Below the pieces are notes generated by a model. The model made no database searches, was not told the DNA's origin, and saw only the letters and a list, made by a program, of their open reading frames with translations. Source: a virus (Duplodnaviria; Heunggongvirae; Uroviricota; Caudoviricetes). Taken from it: a stretch of 6,300 nucleotides of DNA. The stretch is taken from positions 1 through 6,300 of IMG/VR virus record IMGVR_UViG_648276671_000006; one strand, 5' to 3'. Positions within the stretch are counted from its first letter, which is position 1. Each line of letters begins with the position of its first letter. Below, in pieces: positions 749 through 5,943 of this stretch. The position numbers and the translations under genes were made by a program.

Positions 749-930
749 ATCGTATTTCCTCCTGGATCGTTACCTTCAAAATAAATCTTTCTGATAAGAG
801 AAATATAACCACCTGATGTGATTATTTCATCACCAATAATTGAGTGTTTTTTGCCCGCTCTCAATGAAATTTTTTTACGTCTGTTATCTAATCAGAAAGT
901 AGCGTGTCTTTTAAACAGTCGTTGATTTTG

Positions 931-957
931 GCAATAAAAAACCCGCCGAAGCGGGTT
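931..957 (-). terminator. rho-independent terminator of the hok transcript
   Basis: On the minus strand: AACCCGC-UUCG-GCGGGUU (plus 940..957) followed by UUUUAUUGC. GC-rich 7-bp stem with a UUCG tetraloop and U-run. Confidence 0.7.
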
Positions 958-960
958 AAG

Positions 961-1018
961 TGCGGGTGCGTTGAGGATGCCTGACACATCAGAGGTGGCG
1001 AGGGATTTCTCCCTCGCC
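961..1018 (-). promoter_or_regulatory. hok mRNA 3' elements: fbi-like box (961..976) and a perfect 9-bp hairpin (997..1018)
   Basis: The transcript here reads CCUCAACGCACCCGCA, complementary with one bulged C to the predicted 5' end UGCGGGUGCUUGAGG (1330..1316). GGCGAGGGA/UCCCUCGCC hairpin with a 4-nt loop sits just 3' of the hok stop. Confidence 0.5.
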
Positions 1019-1025
1019 TGGTCTC

Positions 1026-1181
1026 TTACTCCTCAGGTTCGTAAGCTGTGAAGACAGCGACCTCCGTCTGGCCGGTTCGGATTCGTACCTCGCAGAGGTC
1101 TTTCCTCGTTACCAGTGCCGTCACTATGACGGTTAAACAGATGACGATCAGGGCGATTAACATCGCCTTTTGCTGCTTCAT
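1026..1181 (-). CDS. hok: Hok/Gef-family type I toxin (51 aa, MKQQKAMLIALIVICLTVIVTALVTRKDLCEVRIRTGQTEVAVFTAYEPEE)
   Basis: Single hydrophobic transmembrane segment followed by the conserved RKxLCE.R...GxxEVAAF-like tail of Hok/Gef peptides. From memory it is closest to chromosomal HokD/RelF. ATG at 1181..1179 with AAGGAG 9 nt upstream. The 70-aa track ORF 1026..1238 is an in-frame N-terminal extension. Confidence 0.85.
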   Translation of the reverse strand: MKQQKAMLIALIVICLTVIVTALVTRKDLCEVRIRTGQTEVAVFTAYEPEE

Positions 1182-1227
1182 AGCCTGCTTCTCCTTGACC
1201 TTTCGGTCCGTAAGAGGCAATCTATAT

Positions 1228-1290
1228 GTGACGAGCATATAGGGGCCTCACTTCGATTTATAGTCGGGTGGGGCTTTTCTCTATCTGCCT
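1228..1290 (+). ncRNA. expected position of a Sok-like antisense RNA (approximate, not firmly located)
   Basis: By analogy with hok/sok loci, the antisense RNA should cover the leader-ORF SD (plus 1246..1251) and ATG (1236..1238). Plus-strand signals are weak: TTGACC (1195..1200), 17 nt, CAATCT; possible 3' stem 1245..1251/1268..1274 followed by TTTTCTCT. It may be degenerate. Confidence 0.2.
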
Positions 1291-1315
1291 TTGGTGGCAT
1301 GCCCGAGACAGATAG

Positions 1316-1361
1316 CCTCAAGCACCCGCAGCAATTCTACTTAACTCTCCTTTTCCCGCAA
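1316..1361 (-). promoter_or_regulatory. hok promoter and 5' tac-like box
   Basis: On the minus strand: TTGCGG (1361..1356), 16 nt, TAGAAT (1339..1334). Predicted start near 1328, giving a transcript of about 390 nt whose first 15 nt are complementary to 976..961. Confidence 0.45.
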
Positions 1362-1448
1362 ACCGTTTTTATCCCCATCGGCAAATCGAATACACCACCA
1401 GCGCCACCGCCAGTGCGATTCCTACCGTTGTGAATGCTTCAGGGCAGG

Positions 1449-1730
1449 TCATCGCAAAACATCCTCCGCGCTTATCAGTTCGTTCCGCTTCAGGTAGTCC
1501 ATCGCCTTCTCCGGTAATTTGCAGTCTGGATTAGCTTTTTTCAGTTGACTGACCAGTCGTTTAACCCACATTGTTAATTCGCCAACTTGGTTACTGGATG
1601 CTAATGGATTGTCGGCTTTACCCAGAATGACAGCACAGCAGGCCTCTTTGAGAACCCAATCAACAGCATCTTTCCATACTCCTGTTTCGACTGGTGGATT
1701 CTCACGCTTTACCTGTTCATAAAAGCGCAC
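1449..1730 (-). CDS. hypothetical protein (93 aa, VRFYEQVKRENPPVETGVWKDAVDWVLKEACCAVILGKADNPLASSNQVGELTMWVKRLVSQLKKANPDCKLPEKAMDYLKRNELISAEDVLR)
   Basis: Protein-like composition. The only start available is GTG at 1730..1728, with no convincing SD; it overlaps the upstream gene by 22 nt, so translation may be coupled. No in-frame ATG before residue 54. Confidence 0.5.
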   Translation of the reverse strand: MRFYEQVKRENPPVETGVWKDAVDWVLKEACCAVILGKADNPLASSNQVGELTMWVKRLVSQLKKANPDCKLPEKAMDYLKRNELISAEDVLR

Positions 1731-1957
1731 GGCTTTAACCAGTCCTTACGCGCCTGCTCCGAAGGAAATATCCCATGCCCCGAACCATATACTGCACCAC
1801 TGACCACCAGCTCTTTCGCCAGAACTTCTATCAGGTGTCTGGTAGCTCCGGTTTCATCTTCCAGTTGCTTACGCGTTTTCCTTCCGTCTCTGCGTACCAG
1901 TTCCACAATACGCGCCTTCAGTTGTTCCCTGTATTCAGGTGTAAAAGCGTTTCCCAT
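1709..1957 (-). CDS. small winged-helix-like protein (82 aa, MGNAFTPEYREQLKARIVELVRRDGRKTRKQLEDETGATRHLIEVLAKELVVSGAVYGSGHGIFPSEQARKDWLKPCAFMNR)
   Basis: Track ORF 1709..2014 begins at a TTG. The ATG at 1957..1955 has GAGG 5 nt upstream, overlapping the stop of the previous gene. Contains a K.T..EL....G.S...V...L...L...G.V motif also found twice in the 256-aa neighbour. Confidence 0.6.
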   Translation of the reverse strand: MGNAFTPEYREQLKARIVELVRRDGRKTRKQLEDETGATRHLIEVLAKELVVSGAVYGSGHGIFPSEQARKDWLKPCAFMNR

Positions 1958-1964
1958 AAACGCC

Positions 1965-2735
1965 TCACTTTTCCGATACAACGCGACTGGTGGAATCGAC
2001 AATCTGTCGAACAATATCCCGGTGCTTGTTCAGCTCCCGTAGCGCGGCGCAGACACGCTCCCACTTCTGGACATGGCTTTTCGCCCGACGCAGTTCACGA
2101 TTTGCCATATGCAGCGATGGTAAAATCAGGTCATCCGCTCGAGTTTCGGTGAACGATGACAACGACTGCACAATGTCCGCCACAGTTTCTGTTTTAATTT
2201 CTTCCTGTATTGCAGCTTCCTGTACAGGTAACGCAACGCCGGCTGGCTGAGGAAAGGCTTTACCATCATTTTCCGTTACCAATGCGACTTTCGGCTTTAC
2301 TGGTAAATTCTCGCCCGGCATGCAGTAGCGAAATTTACCGTTCTGGTTTACGCGTGCCAGCCGCCCCGTTGCGGTTACTACCGCCAGTGTGGAAGCAACC
2401 TTGCGAGTGCTGACACCGAACTTACCCGCCAGTTCCTCACACGTTTTAGCTCCCTCCTGACCGATAAACTCAATCATCATGTCAGCGGTAACTTTTCGTT
2501 CGACCTCCCTGGTTAACACATCTTGTGTTTCAGATTGTGCTGGCTGCTCTTCGGCTCCCCCTGATTCACCTTCGCCAGCCACACGCCAGGTGTATGCACT
2601 TTTATCAACGAAGCCAGCCTTTTTCAGTTCCCACAGCTCCTTCAGCACTTCTTCACGACTGATATCAAGTCGCGTAGTCAGTTCTACCGACGTGGCTTTT
2701 CCCATTGCTTTCAGTGCGTCAAAAACAGTCTCCAT
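1965..2735 (-). CDS. hypothetical protein with two tandem winged-helix-like motifs and a helical C-terminal region (256 aa)
   Basis: ATG at 2735..2733 with GGGAGGA 5 nt upstream; 33-nt gap after the P-like stop. Motifs [32 protein letters not shown] and [33 protein letters not shown]. No Walker A/B or nuclease motifs seen. Confidence 0.8.
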
Positions 2736-2768
2736 AAATTTCCTCCCGGTAAAAAATCACTTCTCAAC

Positions 2769-3434
2769 TCAAACAAAACCAGCCGCTTTCCGGCGTTCAT
2801 ACTCCTGTTTCAGCAACTCAATTGGCGTTGGTCCCGACGGGCGTTTGGGTGCTGCCAGTTGCCGCCGTACGGGCGGAACGCTGAGGCCGTTGCCAACATG
2901 CTTTGCCCATTTCGTCAGCTGCCGTTCTGCAAGCCGTTTTAACTCCCCTTCGGTCATCTGGCATTCAATCCCCTTTGAACGCATCTCGAGGCAAATGTGA
3001 TACAGCACAGGCTGAGACCACGGGTATTTATCGCTTCCGTCGTATCGCCAGGACTCATTGCGCCAGCGTCGGTACTCCTCCATCACGCCATCTACCGTCA
3101 GACCAAATGGATTTGCCCCGCTCTCCGAAATCAGCGCCACAAACTCAGCCAGGTCCGGAGGCCATGTTTCACCCGCCCGGCAGCGGTCCATGCACTGGCG
3201 GCAGACCTGCCGGATTTGCTGCTCAGTCATCGCGCCAATCTGTGCAATCCAGAGCTTCGAAGGTGCGGACCCGTTCTTCTGGGTCCAGCGGTTCGAATAA
3301 ACCTCCCCCATGAGTTCCCACAGCTTCCACGCCGTTTCCGTCGCTGATAAATCCGTTTTCACGTTCCCACTGTTCACGTGCTGCCCGAATTTCCTGAACT
3401 GCCCGTGATGCGGTGCCACCTGGTGCTGCTGCAT
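2769..3434 (-). CDS. replication protein P-like helicase loader
   Basis: The C-terminal two thirds align by eye with lambda P ([18 protein letters not shown] vs ESYPWKSNAHYWLVTNLY; [13 protein letters not shown] vs TDAELRRKAADEL). Start is uncertain: ATG at 3434 has a G-rich SD but overlaps the O-like gene by 212 nt; internal ATGs at 3311 and 3230 (the latter an ATGACTGA overlap with the O-like stop) are alternatives. Confidence 0.7.
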
Positions 3435-4263
3435 GGCTCCCCCCCTTGCTGACTGGTTTAACCTGCGCCCTGACGTGATTTACGTGACGGGCAAATTTCT
3501 GCTCCCACTGAACCTGCGTGAAAACTTTTCCCTCCTCTGCCCAGTAATCCCGGAAGGCGGCAAGTTCAGCAGGTGTAAATTCCGGCTCCGGCAAAGCCAC
3601 TCCCCACAGTGCAGCCCGCCGTCGAAAATCCGGCGACGGATACCAGTCATCGGTCATCGGAAATTTTCCGATGCGTTCGCTCAGGCCATCCAGGAATGCA
3701 GGGGGCGTTGCCTGTGACGGCAAAACTTCCCTCTCACTGGTCGGAGCACTCTCGCGTGCGTTATGTATGGGGTTTAGATCTTTAGGTTCCTTTGGGTTCC
3801 GTGATCCGTTTTTGGGTGTCTTTGATGGAAAATTTGGGTGCCTTTGGTTATTTTCTATGCTGCAAAGAGTCCCGTTTTTGGGTCTGTTTTGTGCGGAAAC
3901 ACAACCGTTTTTGGTGCTGTTTTTATTAACAGTACCAATTTTACCCACCTTTAAAGACTCCCGTTTTTGGGTGTATTCAGGCTCGGCAACACTTTCTTCA
4001 ACACCGATAAGTTGGTACACCACAATTTGCTTTGTTCGACCTTTTCTCTCACCGGTATCAACAATTAACCCAATCTCCATCAGGTGCCGTAAGCTGTCCT
4101 GCACAGTTTTTTTGTTCAGTTCCGTTACTTCTGCCAGTGCAGATACAGACGGGTATGCACACAAATCGGCACCGCACATATCAGCAAGCCAGGTCAATAC
4201 TGACTTACTGGATGAACTGCCGGTTTTCACCCTTTTAGCCCATCGTAGTGCATCGATACTCAT
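3223..4263 (-). CDS. O-like replication initiator: N-terminal HTH domain, PKNG-repeat linker, DnaT-like C-terminal domain
   Basis: Track ORF 3223..4338 starts at TTG. The ATG at 4263..4261 has GAGG 5 nt upstream ([15 protein letters not shown]...). N-terminal region resembles phage replication-initiator HTH domains; [48 protein letters not shown] resembles the DnaT C-terminal domain. Iteron-like repeats lie inside the linker-coding segment. Confidence 0.8.
3783..3976. repeat. iteron-like direct repeats (CCGTTTTTGGGTG family), putative replication origin inside the initiator gene
   Basis: Near-identical copies at 3806..3818, 3872..3884, 3905..3916 and 3961..3973, plus degenerate TTTGGGT(T/G)CC copies at 3791..3800 and 3833..3842. 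An AT-rich stretch lies at 3917..3958. On the coding strand the repeats translate to recurring PKNG. Confidence 0.55.
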
Positions 4264-4786
4264 GCGAACCTCGACCAGGTATCTGTTGACCCGCAAAGCA
4301 ATGTTGGTATTGCTGACGATATGCACGTTTGAAAGCAATAGCTTTTTCTATAAGCTCGTCAGCCTCACGCTCCACAACAGTTGGATCTGCAAAAAGCAGC
4401 CCGGACTCCACCACATCACCATACTCTTTGTTTAACCCGGCGATCATGTACGTAATGCTTTTTCCGTCAGTAATTTCACAATACAACCTGAAATCACTGA
4501 TCCGGATAGCCTCCATAATTGCCGGAATCAGCGCCGTGAATTTTTCACGCTTATCCCTGGTGTCGATAGCTTTCCAGCGTTCAAATATCTTCACCCTGTT
4601 AACGCCAAGCGCCCGCTGATCAACCACGCCATCATCAAATGTGACACGTTGAACATCGATGTTCGGGCGCTCTTTCAGAGCCCAGAAGGCTTCTGTGATT
4701 AATATCGTCGCCTGCTCCTGCGTCATTCCCGGGCTGCATACCCAGGAGTCCAGAGCCTCACGAGCCTGCTCAGGAGTGAATATCAT
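4235..4786 (-). CDS. YdaT-like protein, positional equivalent of lambda CII (183 aa)
   Basis: Sits between the Cro-like gene and the initiator, as cII does in lambda. ATG at 4786..4784 overlaps the Cro-like stop by 17 nt. Assignment to the YdaT family is from memory of prophage YdaS/YdaT pairs, not from a search. Confidence 0.7.
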
Positions 4787-5063
4787 TGTTCACCGCCAGT
4801 GATTCATTTGTCATACACTTATTCCCACAAGGCAGCCCATCGGTTAGATTGGGGTAAATATCTGGGCGAAGCTCGTGGGGGGTGACTTGCCATTCAAGGA
4901 GCACACAAAGAGGAATGACCCGCTCAGCTGGTATTGATTTATTGGCAAACCATTTTCCAACCCCTTGCCCACTAATCCCAAAGCGTTCTCCAATCTCGAC
5001 AAAGGAAAAGTTTTTTTTAATCTTGTCTCGTAGATCGTTTAGTTTTTGATGTTTTTTAGCCAC
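4770..5063 (-). CDS. Cro/YdaS-like HTH regulator (97 aa from the GTG start)
   Basis: HTH FVEIGERFGISGQGVGKWFANKSIPAERV and an ELRPD motif as in YdaS-type Cro proteins. Track ORF 4770..5162 would leave only 11 nt to the divergent repressor. GTG at 5063..5061 has a near-consensus SD GAGGTGAGG (5078..5070). ATG at 5087 is an alternative, possibly leaderless. Confidence 0.7.
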   Translation of the reverse strand: MAKKHQKLNDLRDKIKKNFSFVEIGERFGISGQGVGKWFANKSIPAERVIPLCVLLEWQVTPHELRPDIYPNLTDGLPCGNKCMTNESLAVNNDIHS

Positions 5064-5173
5064 ACAACACCTCACCTCTTGGTTCATCACTGGGAGCATA
5101 ACAGGCGAAAGTTTACGTTTCAAGAACAAGGAAACAAATAGTTGTACTGATAATCGAAACATTTGGTTGTAAA
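5064..5173. promoter_or_regulatory. divergent promoter/operator region of the immunity switch
   Basis: Three operator-like sites about 25 bp apart: GAAAGTTTACGTTTC (5107..5121, palindromic GAAA-N7-TTTC), GAAACAAATAGTTGTAC (5131..5147) and GAAACATTTGGTTGTAA (5156..5172). Leftward promoter TTGAAA (5123..5118), 17 nt, TATGCT (5100..5095). Rightward promoter CTGATA (5147..5152), 17 nt, TAAAAT (5170..5175). Confidence 0.55.
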
Positions 5174-5599
5174 ATGCAGGCTATGAACGATACCGTTAAC
5201 AATGTTTTTGCAAAAAGAATCCAGCAAGTGATGGATGAAAATGGCTGGAATAAGTCAGACCTGGCTAAGCGGGTCATGTTATCTCACACCGCGGTTCAGA
5301 ATTGGGCAAAAGGCATCAGCGTAGCCAGCGGTGTAAGATTAAAAAGGCTCGCAGCTGTAACAGGAAAGCCTGAGTACTGGTTTTTTATGGATCGGGATGC
5401 AGGAGGCGATGAAAATCACCAAGATATACCAATACCCATTGTGCTTGATGACAAAGAGAAAGCCCTGCTCTCAATTTTCAATCAAATGCCAGAAGCAGAA
5501 AAGTTACGCCTAATTATCCATGCTAAGGAAGTCCTGAGAGAGCTGGAACTGCTTAAGAGCGATGTTTTCGATATTATCAACGATCAATTAAAACCATAG
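5174..5599 (+). CDS. DicA-like HTH (XRE-family) prophage repressor, 141 aa
   Basis: N-terminal HTH SDLAKRVMLSHTAVQNWAKG; the C-terminal segment LDDKEKALLSIFNQMPEAEKLRLIIHAKEV resembles the DicA C-terminal region. No peptidase S24 (LexA-like) domain. Divergent from the Cro-like gene. The start may instead be the ATG at 5183, because the -10 TAAAAT overlaps the first ATG. Confidence 0.85.
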   Translation: MQAMNDTVNNVFAKRIQQVMDENGWNKSDLAKRVMLSHTAVQNWAKGISVASGVRLKRLAAVTGKPEYWFFMDRDAGGDENHQDIPIPIVLDDKEKALLSIFNQMPEAEKLRLIIHAKEVLRELELLKSDVFDIINDQLKP

Positions 5600-5790: not shown

Positions 5791-5943
5791 ATGGATACTA
5801 TCGATCTTGGCAACAACGAATCTCTGGTGTACGGCGTGTTTCCCAACCAGGACGGCACGTTCACCGCGATGACGTATACCAAAAGCAAAACATTTAAAAC
5901 CGAAGCTGGCGCGCGTCGCTGGTTAGCCAGAAACACTGACTGA
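5791..5943 (+). CDS. YdfA-like small protein (50 aa, MDTIDLGNNESLVYGVFPNQDGTFTAMTYTKSKTFKTEAGARRWLARNTD)
   Basis: Below the ORF-track length cutoff. ATG at 5791 with GAGG 5 nt upstream; stop TGA at 5941..5943. Its position immediately downstream of a DicA-like repressor matches the dicA-ydfA arrangement of the Qin prophage. Sequence identity to YdfA is from uncertain memory. Confidence 0.6.
   Translation: MDTIDLGNNESLVYGVFPNQDGTFTAMTYTKSKTFKTEAGARRWLARNTD

Follow-up and report, generated by a model that had tools for sequence, protein, structure and literature searches.

Winged-helix modules of YdaW and of a truncated Ren-like protein encoded beside it in a Rac-like lambdoid prophage

The 6,300-nt stretch of DNA analysed here (the window) comes from a Rac-like lambdoid prophage of Escherichia coli, of which it forms the early-right (replication) operon; the minus strand carries, in order, cro-like, cII-like, O-like and P-like genes, ydaW, a Ren-like gene and, past a deletion, hok. 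Two neighbours concern us: a ydaW-type gene encoding 256 aa (1965..2735, minus strand; stop codon 1965-1967) and a gene encoding 82 aa (1709..1957, minus strand; ATG start at 1957, stop 1709-1711), which the program-made list of open reading frames gives as a 101-aa version from a TTG start. The ydaW stop codon overlaps the GAGG Shine-Dalgarno sequence of the smaller gene, 7 nt upstream of ATG 1957, an overlap that suggests translational coupling; the intervals between P, ydaW and DUF977 showed no promoter or terminator beyond shuffle expectation. Placement directly 3' of replication genes is shared by 76 of 80 related loci.

The 256-aa product is a member of DUF1627 (PF07789; E 8.4e-96 and 318.4 bits, with the cutoff at 28.1; the match spans model positions 1-155 of 155) and of PHROG 630 (phrog_630; E 6.9e-130, residues 1-252 on profile positions 1-252 of 253). 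It resembles Rac YdaW over its full length, in its identical architecture and in its location downstream of the replication genes, which in Rac are ydaU and ydaV, with 62% identity to the E. coli K-12 protein over residues 1-154; the homologue of phage Rac-SA53 is annotated ydaW, RefSeq annotation likewise backs the gene identities, and proteins with 83-92% identity occur widely in E. coli under the name 'DUF1627 domain-containing protein'. The K-12 reference, however, is a 186-aa truncated allele devoid of the C-terminal helix, whereas the window copy is full length. YdaW also figures on a list of predicted two-domain transcription factors (PMC9308461).

AlphaFold2 (AF2) resolves the protein into an acidic winged helix-turn-helix (wHTH1), a disordered linker, a basic wHTH2, a second disordered linker and a long C-terminal helix. 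wHTH1 (residues 1-55; 2571..2735, minus strand; pLDDT 94-97) consists of H4-11, a short strand, H16-23, H27-39, E43-46 and E49-52, and lies outside the Pfam DUF1627 model because the latter spans only residues 91-245; weak Pfam matches are to TrmB, HTH_9 and Fe_dep_repress. In an alignment of 40 YdaW-family members (A1; 21-79% identity to the window protein) its L34 and W50, the wing Trp, are invariant. Linker 1 (residues 56-80; 2496..2570, minus strand; pLDDT ~50) is predicted to be disordered and varies in length and sequence, its alignment columns being gapped and non-conserved. wHTH2 (residues 81-140; 2316..2495, minus strand; pLDDT 93-96) comprises H84-94, H99-106, H110-123, E127-131 and E134-138, and is followed by the Pro/Ala/Glu-rich linker 2 (residues 141-184; 2184..2315, minus strand; pLDDT 50-65), likewise predicted to be disordered and highly gapped in A1. 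The C-terminal domain (residues 185-256; 1968..2183, minus strand) starts with short helices and ends in a long helix, 208-255 (pLDDT 93-96 for residues 208-250). It holds the conserved stretch IPSFT..R.DDLI.P....EIRRTK..L..LEKLR.A.REL.KH, in which the EIRRTK..L..LEKLR motif of the DUF1627 architecture (wHTH1, facultative wHTH2, C-terminal helical domain) is present; R216 is nearly invariant in A1. This helix is probably an oligomerisation helix, through which YdaW would self-associate, judging from the monomer model.

The D1, D2 and CT HMMs match in that order in 77 of 80 viral loci, the exceptions being one locus cut by a contig end (L019), one with an extra wHTH2-HMM match over the wHTH1 region (L021) and one without wHTH2 (L025). 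wHTH2 is an optional module of the family: besides L025, it is missing from the short members P0246, P0253, P0287, P0330 and P0365. The modules also differ in charge, with a median pI of 4.9 for wHTH1 and 9.9 for wHTH2 and a pI of 9.6 for the DUF977 wHTH, and the opposite charges of the two YdaW domains suggest different roles.

The 82-aa product belongs to DUF977/LygF (PHROG 142, 'Ren-like exclusion protein'), which it resembles in its N-terminal wHTH and its position downstream of ydaW. PF06163 (DUF977) scores 43.6 bits against a cutoff of 22.1, covering only model positions 1-76 of 134, and phrog_142 matches at E 4.7e-17. For the wHTH (residues 7-64; ~1766-1939, minus strand) we took the AF2 model of a full-length relative, P0121, with one substitution within residues 1-72, to stand in for the 82-aa chain: it shows H7-24, a short strand, H29-36, H40-53, E57-59, E62-64 and H67-85 (pLDDT ~90-93). 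Together with the PF06163 match, this model identifies the N-terminal winged helix of the family, as called previously (Kinch 2009; PMC2686095). Full-length relatives measure 138-141 aa. Residues 1-~75 are 84-96% identical to E. albertii and E. coli DUF977 proteins, but the window copy has nothing that corresponds to Pfam model positions 77-134, where the conserved DPDLI..LPDGEIRRY...ECRKSEVMQRVLAFY stretch lies, and, ending at residue 82, it lacks the Ren-type C-terminal motif ECRQS..M.RvL..Y (E-C-R-x-S-x-x-M-x-R-v-L-x-x-Y).

The Ren-type C-terminal half is gone because of a deletion at 1727-1747, where the junction is marked by an imperfect repeat of 21 bp, 9 bp of it exact (CCAGTCCTT), and ~1.28 kb of related prophages is missing. 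Window positions 1680-1747 are 100% identical to 2204-2271 of locus L002, in which the right arm resumes at 3548. Beyond the junction, a 93-aa ORF (1449..1730, minus strand) is the C-terminal remnant of another gene: phrog_660 matches in its C-terminal half only (positions 105-193 of 193, E 9.5e-45), and the ORF corresponds to the 3' part of a 171-aa hypothetical gene of L002. As one piece, the junction occurs in 0 of 5,426 complete E. coli genomes, and the 82-aa form was seen on one contig only. The 82-aa protein is thus what a deletion specific to this strain has left of a Ren-like protein of 138-141 aa; it is most likely non-functional, at best a bare DNA-binding domain. Recombination across the repeat removed ~1.3 kb while sparing the DUF977 wHTH (residues 1-~75).

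The original prediction, made from the letters of the window, was that one winged-helix-like motif recurs three times in these two genes. All three segments are indeed found on the minus strand, at 2607-2702 (GKATSVEL...AGFV, residues 12-43 of the 256-aa ORF), 2355-2453 (GAKTCEEL...GRLA, residues 95-127) and 1790-1885 (GRKTRKQL...SGAV, residues 25-56 of the 82-aa ORF), within wHTH1, wHTH2 and the DUF977 wHTH, respectively. Each covers the second and third helices and the first part of the wing; what recurs three times is the H2-turn-H3-wing core of a wHTH domain. The winged-helix label proved right for all three, by AF2 topology, Foldseek, Pfam and PHROG matches and earlier literature: AF2 gives them one topology, with the order H1-(b1)-H2-turn-H3-b2-b3 visible in each (in the third through P0121), and Foldseek matches ArsR, MarR, GntR and Zalpha structures at a probability of 1.00; for the single-domain wHTH matches, 51-69 aligned columns fit with an rmsd of 1.2-3 A. 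The likeness to the DNA-binding domains of ArsR/SmtB, MarR, TrmB, FeoC and GntR lies in this alpha1-beta1-alpha2-alpha3-beta2-beta3 topology; unlike MarR, the window domains carry no MarR-type dimerisation helices, and all Pfam and NCBIfam scores to generic wHTH families fall under the curated cutoffs. Foldseek also retrieves tandem-WH proteins. Among the tandem-WH scaffolds compared (ScpB, ESCRT-II and the SelB C-terminus), ScpB and ESCRT-II share with YdaW the presence of two WH domains per chain; in these scaffolds the two pack together, whereas in YdaW a disordered linker separates them. Single-sequence searches of the PDB gave E values of 0.05-1 only; matches to gasdermin-B and to PPR/designed-repeat entries, having no significant aligned stretch, were dismissed as compositional.

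At the level of single sequences the resemblance is slight. When the three segments are aligned without gaps, the pairwise comparisons show 8, 8 and 6 identical residues out of 32, and four columns are invariant (G1, T4, L8 and G30); identity among the three wHTHs is 14-20%. Smith-Waterman comparison of single sequences against 2000 shuffles singles out wHTH2 and the small protein as the sole convincing pair (z 4.7, p 0.0015), with z 1.6 for wHTH1-wHTH2 and 0.4 for wHTH1 and the small protein. The pattern G..T..[EQ]L....[DG].[ST]...[VI]......[LV]...G.[VL] finds, in the window, the three segments only, four DUF977 ORFs among 3,504 others and nothing in shuffles; we do not take it as evidence because it was built post hoc from the same three segments and is over-fitted. 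Profile comparison of the family alignments (hhalign) aligns the modules exactly in the predicted register and above background, with probabilities of 94.3% for wHTH1-wHTH2 (score 35.9), 78.3% for wHTH1-DUF977 (score 28.0) and 96.3-96.5% for wHTH2-DUF977 (score 45-47). Column-shuffled controls scored 9 +/- 2 (maximum 16.5) and a control wHTH, that of the phage's own O-like initiator, 15-20 (probability 2-19%); the pattern therefore exceeds chance. The basic pair, wHTH2 and the Ren-like wHTH, is the closest of the three in these comparisons.

How these modules are related is less straightforward. A common origin is plausible: in their profiles all three are closer to one another than to the control, phrog_142 matches wHTH2 (residues 79-137 of the window protein, E 2.6e-5) and wHTH2 behaves as an optional insert. 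Specific common descent, however, is not proven, because mutual similarity is no greater than that between wHTH2 and eukaryotic Zalpha domains (24-29 bits). It is possible, albeit unlikely, that three members of the wHTH superfamily were recruited independently and that the pattern is a generic signature made of the hydrophobic core of H2 and H3 and of Gly in turns. Individual family members match generic families as well as or better than each other (HTH_20 4.8e-12, HTH_24 9.5e-11, MarR 8.6e-9), Zalpha, ArsR, MarR, TrmB and FeoC score in the same range as the mutual matches, the best PDB matches of the wHTH2 profile are eukaryotic Zalpha, and cross-domain HMM medians reach only 4-12 bits. NCBIfam and PADLOC scans yield only sub-threshold generic or CARF-associated wHTH matches. 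Against independent recruitment, the mutual hhalign scores of 28-47 stand clearly above the 15-20 of the initiator, a figure that comes from one control wHTH while PDB matches to Zalpha and ArsR reach comparable bit scores; the commonest non-self match of the YdaW family is to the Ren-like PHROG (32 of 40 members, best E 6.4e-9); and among 3,504 ORFs the wHTH2 HMM singles out free-standing wHTH proteins encoded downstream in distant phages (18-27 bits, E 5e-7 to 3e-4). An iterative HMM search from DUF977 gathered all YdaW proteins at round 2 (round-1 domain E 0.002-0.9), a result that we count as no more than supportive, given that wHTH profiles can be expected to drift. A large protein search with the DUF977 and Ren alignment added little diversity, the matches listed all being near DUF977 relatives with identities of 65% or more.

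The original prediction went further and proposed internal duplication within YdaW plus a free-standing paralogue that could be a decoy or partner subunit; in such a role it might, for example, compete with YdaW for a DNA site or form hetero-oligomers. The common register of the three profiles (78-96%), the overlap of the ydaW stop with the Shine-Dalgarno of the small gene, and the presence of DUF977 immediately 3' of ydaW in 16/16 E. coli-type viral loci and ~9 distant ones speak for it, but this adjacency amounts to only ~25 of 80 related phage loci; in the remaining ~55 another gene, mostly encoding a small zinc-ribbon-like protein, lies downstream. The 82-aa form, moreover, is a deletion product of a single contig, not a designed minimal paralogue, and should not be read as a dedicated decoy; full-length DUF977 continues into an unrelated C-terminal region of its own; and in 2/2 related prophages inspected DUF977 is annotated as frameshifted while ydaW is intact. 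One domain of YdaW being acidic and the other basic, the two are not equivalent repeats, which also counts against this model. Duplication survives as a plausible notion at the level of the wHTH module alone: a recent event is not demonstrated, because the two proteins end in unrelated domains (0.6% probability in hhalign, with no similarity between YdaW and DUF977 detected outside the wHTH) and other wHTH families score about equally, and the low identity argues likewise. The decoy or partner-subunit role is not supported, and the proposal as a whole we regard as unlikely. In the same vein, the idea that full-length DUF977 equals 'wHTH2 plus C-terminus' of YdaW was rejected on BLASTP (E 3-19) and on the C-terminal comparison above.

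The affinity to Zalpha deserves a separate comment, as the modules could conceivably be phage Zalpha-like domains binding left-handed Z-DNA or Z-RNA. The Zalpha domains of ADAR1, ZBP1, PKZ and E3L, which share the minimal wHTH size, give wHTH2 its best profile-to-PDB sequence scores, being top or near-top matches; they also match the DUF977 wHTH and, weakly, wHTH1, where the invariant wing Trp W50 is suggestive, and Foldseek superposes them with TM 0.70-0.77 and rmsd 1.3-2.3 A. Yet the profile alignment shows alanine in the wHTH2 family at the two helix-3 positions through which ADAR1 contacts Z-DNA (N173 and Y177), and the match stops before the PPxW wing. The best single-domain PDB match, 2l54, itself has alanine at both contact positions (KKEIARVLASLAKKG versus KKEINRVLYSLAKKG in the other ADAR1 chain), and it is because of these alanines that it outscores unmutated ADAR1 Zalpha chains (27.8 versus ~23 bits). 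With neither the helix-3 Asn and Tyr nor the wing PPxW matched, Zalpha membership was rejected; Zalpha is simply a minimal wHTH of equal size, and a Z-nucleic-acid function appears very improbable.

A further comparison is with lambda Ren (96 aa, conferring resistance to Rex exclusion). The gene for Ren fills the same slot, directly downstream of the replication genes, and its product shares an N-terminal wHTH-like region with a G.T...V..LTGAT pattern; full-length DUF977 matches Ren at 3e-8 in BLASTP over the C-terminal motif, so the significant, Ren-similar part is exactly what the window protein has lost. No pairwise similarity was found between YdaW and Ren. Ren has been described as interacting with Rex proteins and as 'likely involved in DNA replication' (bioRxiv 10.1101/2021.04.19.439022), and ydaW was reported as a blocker of the retron toxin RcaT in an overexpression screen that involved the truncated K-12 allele (bioRxiv 10.1101/2020.06.22.160242). 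Overall, the explanation we consider best, at a probability of about 60%, combines three related wHTHs, a truncated DUF977, module shuffling and an accessory or anti-exclusion role of YdaW. The modules would share a common origin within the superfamily and have spread by shuffling among the 'ren slot' genes downstream of the replication genes. In early lytic growth YdaW may have an accessory function, associated with replication or directed against exclusion; going by net charge, the basic wHTH2 would bind nucleic acid and the acidic wHTH1 would contact protein. An early accessory DNA-binding or anti-exclusion role is the one we favour, its anti-exclusion side because of the analogy to Ren, which protects against Rex, and consistent with the block of RcaT by K-12 ydaW.

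A bolder and rather improbable extension sees in the ren slot of lambdoid phages a modular cassette against abortive infection, made up of YdaW and the Ren-like DUF977 protein. The two basic wHTHs might then recognise the same nucleic-acid or defence-protein target, wHTH1 might serve as a DNA-mimic or protein-binding head neutralising toxins of host or prophage (RexAB-type systems, the retron effector RcaT), and the optional wHTH2 and the frequent decay of DUF977 might reflect an arms race with different defence systems.

Both families, DUF1627/YdaW and DUF977/Ren-like, and their wHTH nature are already described, and the finding is mostly ordinary. What it adds is the recognition of the 82-aa protein as a deletion remnant, the optional status of wHTH2 in YdaW, with the Ren-like wHTH as the closest relative detectable for it among phages, and the opposite charge of the two YdaW domains. 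What ren-slot genes do has long been a minor gap in the biology of lambdoid phages, and no mechanism is known for lambda Ren, described in 1980; a connection with anti-defence, if shown experimentally, would therefore be of moderate interest. As to taxonomic range, a scan of a genome collection with the wHTH1 alignment matched 14 loci, one in an unclassified bacterium and the 13 with a named genus all in Enterobacterales (Escherichia, Salmonella, Serratia, Enterobacter, Citrobacter and Buttiauxella).

We explored how three winged helix-turn-helix (wHTH) domains encoded by two adjacent minus-strand genes of the window are related: wHTH1 and wHTH2, followed by a C-terminal domain, in the 256-aa YdaW-type protein (1965-2735), and the wHTH of an 82-aa DUF977 protein (1709-1957). 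That the three share an origin through shuffling of one wHTH module is plausible but not proven, the closest pair being wHTH2 and the Ren-like domain of the small protein. The original prediction had recognized one winged-helix-like motif in all three and read it as an internal duplication plus a free-standing paralogue, possibly a decoy or partner subunit; its evolutionary reading is partly supported, its functional reading is not supported. The three peptide segments do lie on the minus strand within 1709-2735, the 82-aa frame starting at an ATG at 1957 with GAGG 7 nt upstream, overlapping the stop codon of the 256-aa gene. Aligned without gaps, the segments (32 residues) have 6-8 identical positions in each pair and four columns invariant in all three. 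As single sequences, with significance from 2000 shuffles, wHTH2 and the small protein gave z 4.7 (p 0.0015), wHTH1 and wHTH2 z 1.6 (p 0.09), and wHTH1 and the small protein z 0.4 (p 0.31); thus, the raw motif pattern alone is weak evidence.

An exhaustive search of 1.84 billion representatives yielded 175 relatives of the 256-aa protein, about 40 of them full-length (21-50% identity). The YdaW family alignment was split into wHTH1 (residues 1-56), wHTH2 (78-141) and the C-terminal domain, and the small protein was represented by DUF977 proteins together with distant free-standing relatives adjoining YdaW homologues in viral contigs. The pairwise profile alignment proposed with the original prediction (hhalign) gave probabilities of 94.3% for wHTH1 and wHTH2 (score 35.9), 78.3% for wHTH1 and the DUF977 wHTH (28.0), and 96.3-96.5% for wHTH2 and the DUF977 wHTH (45-47), against scores of 9 +/- 2 (max 16.5) for column-shuffled controls, 15-20 (2-19%) for the wHTH of the phage's O-like initiator and 8.5-10.6 (below 1%) for the YdaW C-terminal domain. 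Every alignment among the three fell in exactly the proposed register; the repeated motif is real and was correctly aligned. Three independent cross-hits agree with this: PHROG 142 ("Ren-like exclusion protein"), to which the small protein belongs (E 4.7e-17), also matches the 256-aa protein at residues 79-137 (E 2.6e-5) as well as 32 of 40 YdaW-family members (best 6.4e-9); a wHTH2-only HMM detects, among 3,504 ORFs, the free-standing downstream wHTH proteins of four related loci (L065, L079, L045 and L038; 18-27 bits); and an iterative search seeded with DUF977 arrives at YdaW proteins.

Structure prediction, likewise proposed at the outset, gives one topology, alpha1-beta1-alpha2-alpha3-beta2-beta3, for all three domains. 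In the AlphaFold2 model of the 256-aa protein (40-sequence alignment, mean pLDDT 80), wHTH1 (residues 1-55: helix 4-11, short strand, helices 16-23 and 27-39, hairpin 43-52) and wHTH2 (82-140: helices 84-94, 99-106 and 110-123, hairpin 127-138) reach pLDDT 93-97; linkers 56-80 (about 50) and 141-184 (about 50-65) are predicted disordered, and the C-terminal domain (185-255) consists of short helices, then a long helix, 208-255 (93-96). The DUF977 wHTH was modelled through a full-length relative, P0121, with one substitution within residues 1-72 (helix 7-24, short strand, helices 29-36 and 40-53, hairpin 57-64, extra helix 67-85; pLDDT about 90); confidence is low in its C-terminal third. Foldseek matches were limited to generic winged helices (ArsR, MarR, GntR, Zalpha) and tandem-WH scaffolds (ESCRT-II, ScpB, SelB). 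On these predicted models the wHTH assignment of the three domains is right. DUF977 had earlier been placed in the winged-helix fold (PMC2686095), and PMC9308461 includes YdaW in its predicted transcription factors of E. coli, giving it a MarR-type domain and, putatively, a second DNA-binding domain. Zalpha domains top the profile-to-PDB list for wHTH2 and are also listed for wHTH1 and the DUF977 wHTH. We rejected wHTH2 as a Zalpha domain: its family carries Ala at both helix-3 positions that contact Z-DNA (N173 and Y177 in ADAR1), as does its best single-domain PDB match, the ADAR1 Zalpha chain 2l54, in contrast to the Asn and Tyr of the other ADAR1 chain, and the alignment stops short of the PPxW wing. 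The resemblance reflects the shared minimal wHTH.

How far does this relatedness extend? YdaW-family members of 117-170 aa, as well as viral locus L025, join wHTH1 straight to the C-terminal domain, so a wHTH has been inserted or lost within the family and wHTH2 is an optional module, which together with the profile scores and cross-hits favors a common origin of the three domains at the level of the module. Several observations speak against a specific recent duplication: identities are only 14-20%, the YdaW and DUF977 C-terminal domains are unrelated (probability 0.6%), and individual members match generic wHTH families no less strongly than one another (HTH_20 4.8e-12, HTH_24 9.5e-11, MarR 8.6e-9). 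Moreover, the wHTH2 profile gives 24-29 bits on eukaryotic Zalpha domains and at best 28-30 bits, a comparable range, on wHTH1 and DUF977 sequences (medians 4-12). The two YdaW domains are not equivalent repeats either, since wHTH1 is acidic (family median pI 4.9) whereas wHTH2 is basic (9.9), the DUF977 wHTH being basic as well (9.6).

The small gene itself is a remnant, a recent accident. DUF977 proteins elsewhere have 138-141 aa, and the Pfam match here ends at model position 76 of 134. When two related prophages were compared by blastn, window 1680-1747 matched 2204-2271 of one of them (L002) at 100% identity, within a downstream 171-aa gene, and from 1739 onward the match picks up at L002 3548, within DUF977; an imperfect repeat of 21 bp, 9 bp of it exact, forms the junction (1727-1747). 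The ~1.28-kb gap takes in the C-terminal half of DUF977, three small genes and the 5' portion of the 171-aa gene, whose 3' remnant is the 93-aa ORF at 1449-1730 (minus strand; phrog_660, C-terminal half only). Among 5,426 complete E. coli genomes, not one has the junction as a single piece, and the exact 82-aa sequence (EGI41129.1) is recorded just once, on a 9.3-kb E. coli TA280 contig. Unlike it, the exact 256-aa sequence is absent from a 15-billion-protein collection (closest cluster 92% identical); in that strain, gene calling may have set the start of ydaW elsewhere or missed the allele. Both related E. coli prophages that we inspected carry DUF977 as an annotated frameshifted pseudogene (L002 3344-3765, L003 2743-3160) beside an intact ydaW, and further truncated forms (91-109 aa) cluster with the 82-aa protein at 90% identity, which suggests frequent decay in resident prophages. 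A bare wHTH can nonetheless be a viable protein, since natural wHTH-only relatives (~85 aa) adjoin distant YdaW homologues.

The decoy or partner role finds little support, given this truncation and a pairing that is not obligate: in 76 of 80 related viral loci the YdaW homologue comes after the replication module (upstream gene DnaC-like in 51, P-like in 13, initiator-like in 12), and a DUF977/Ren-like gene is next in only ~25 of the 80. In ~50 the next gene encodes a small zinc-ribbon-like protein, and elsewhere an Rrf2-like wHTH or an unrelated ORF. The zinc-ribbon-like proteins (67-78 aa, CPxCG...C..(G)C/H, at roughly 3650-3880 of their loci, plus strand) take the place of a Ren-like wHTH in the majority of distant YdaW-family loci (L030, L032, L037, L039, L043 and about 45 others).

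Lambda Ren is genetically known to protect phage from Rex exclusion. The deleted part of DUF977 carries the motif common to both, ...N-l-v-x-x-E-C-R-Q-S-x-x-M-x-R-v-L-x-x-Y, over which Ren matches full-length DUF977 at 3e-8. Interaction of Ren with Rex proteins has been reported, as has that it is "likely involved in DNA replication" (bioRxiv 10.1101/2021.04.19.439022), and the truncated K-12 ydaW allele, retaining wHTH1 and wHTH2, came out of an overexpression screen as blocking RcaT, the toxin of retron-Sen2 (bioRxiv 10.1101/2020.06.22.160242). With low confidence, we favor YdaW as an early accessory protein that would oligomerise via its C-terminal helix, bind nucleic acid through basic wHTH2, contact a protein through acidic wHTH1 and serve replication control or anti-exclusion. 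Neither family is new, nor is its wHTH nature, near-identical proteins being annotated in hundreds of genomes; what we add is modest: the truncation, the optional wHTH2 and how it connects to the Ren-like wHTH, and the charge difference between the wHTHs.

From ORF listing and family scans, the window is a lambdoid early-right operon, and DNA searches assign it to the Rac-like prophages of E. coli. A cI-like HTH_3 repressor (5174-5599) is the sole plus-strand gene of the operon region; on the minus strand lie YdaS/Cro-like (4770-5162) and YdaT/CII-like (4235-4786) genes, an O-like initiator with a DnaT domain (3223-4338), a P-like helicase loader (2769-3434), then ydaW and DUF977 in the slot held by ren in lambda. 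Phage Rac-SA53 is annotated in identical order (dicA, dicC, ydaT, ydaU, ydaV, ydaW, lygF), and RefSeq genomes list a "DUF1627 domain-containing protein" followed by a "DUF977 family protein". No promoter or terminator signal between the P-like gene, ydaW and DUF977 exceeded shuffle expectation, so both seem to share a transcript with the replication genes. The operon segment ends at a type I toxin gene of the hok/mok type (1026-1238, minus strand; Pfam HOK_GEF 2.9e-23, labelled hokD in related genomes) and, 3' of it, a hairpin at 940-957 (minus strand), the only strong intrinsic-terminator-like site in a 900-3500 scan. Annotations of the cro-like and cII-like genes conflict (Pfam YdaS_toxin and YdaT_toxin; PHROGs transcriptional repressor and CII-like activator). 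The P-like ORF, mechanically called at 221 aa, has 212 nt in common with the O-like ORF; its true start is probably near 3230, since the L002 homologue is a 153-aa RefSeq 'replication protein P' with an 8-nt overlap with the initiator gene. PHROG 15931 (482 positions) covers both proteins, which suggests fused O-P forms elsewhere. Past the cI-like repressor lies a DUF1391 ORF (5791-5943, plus strand).
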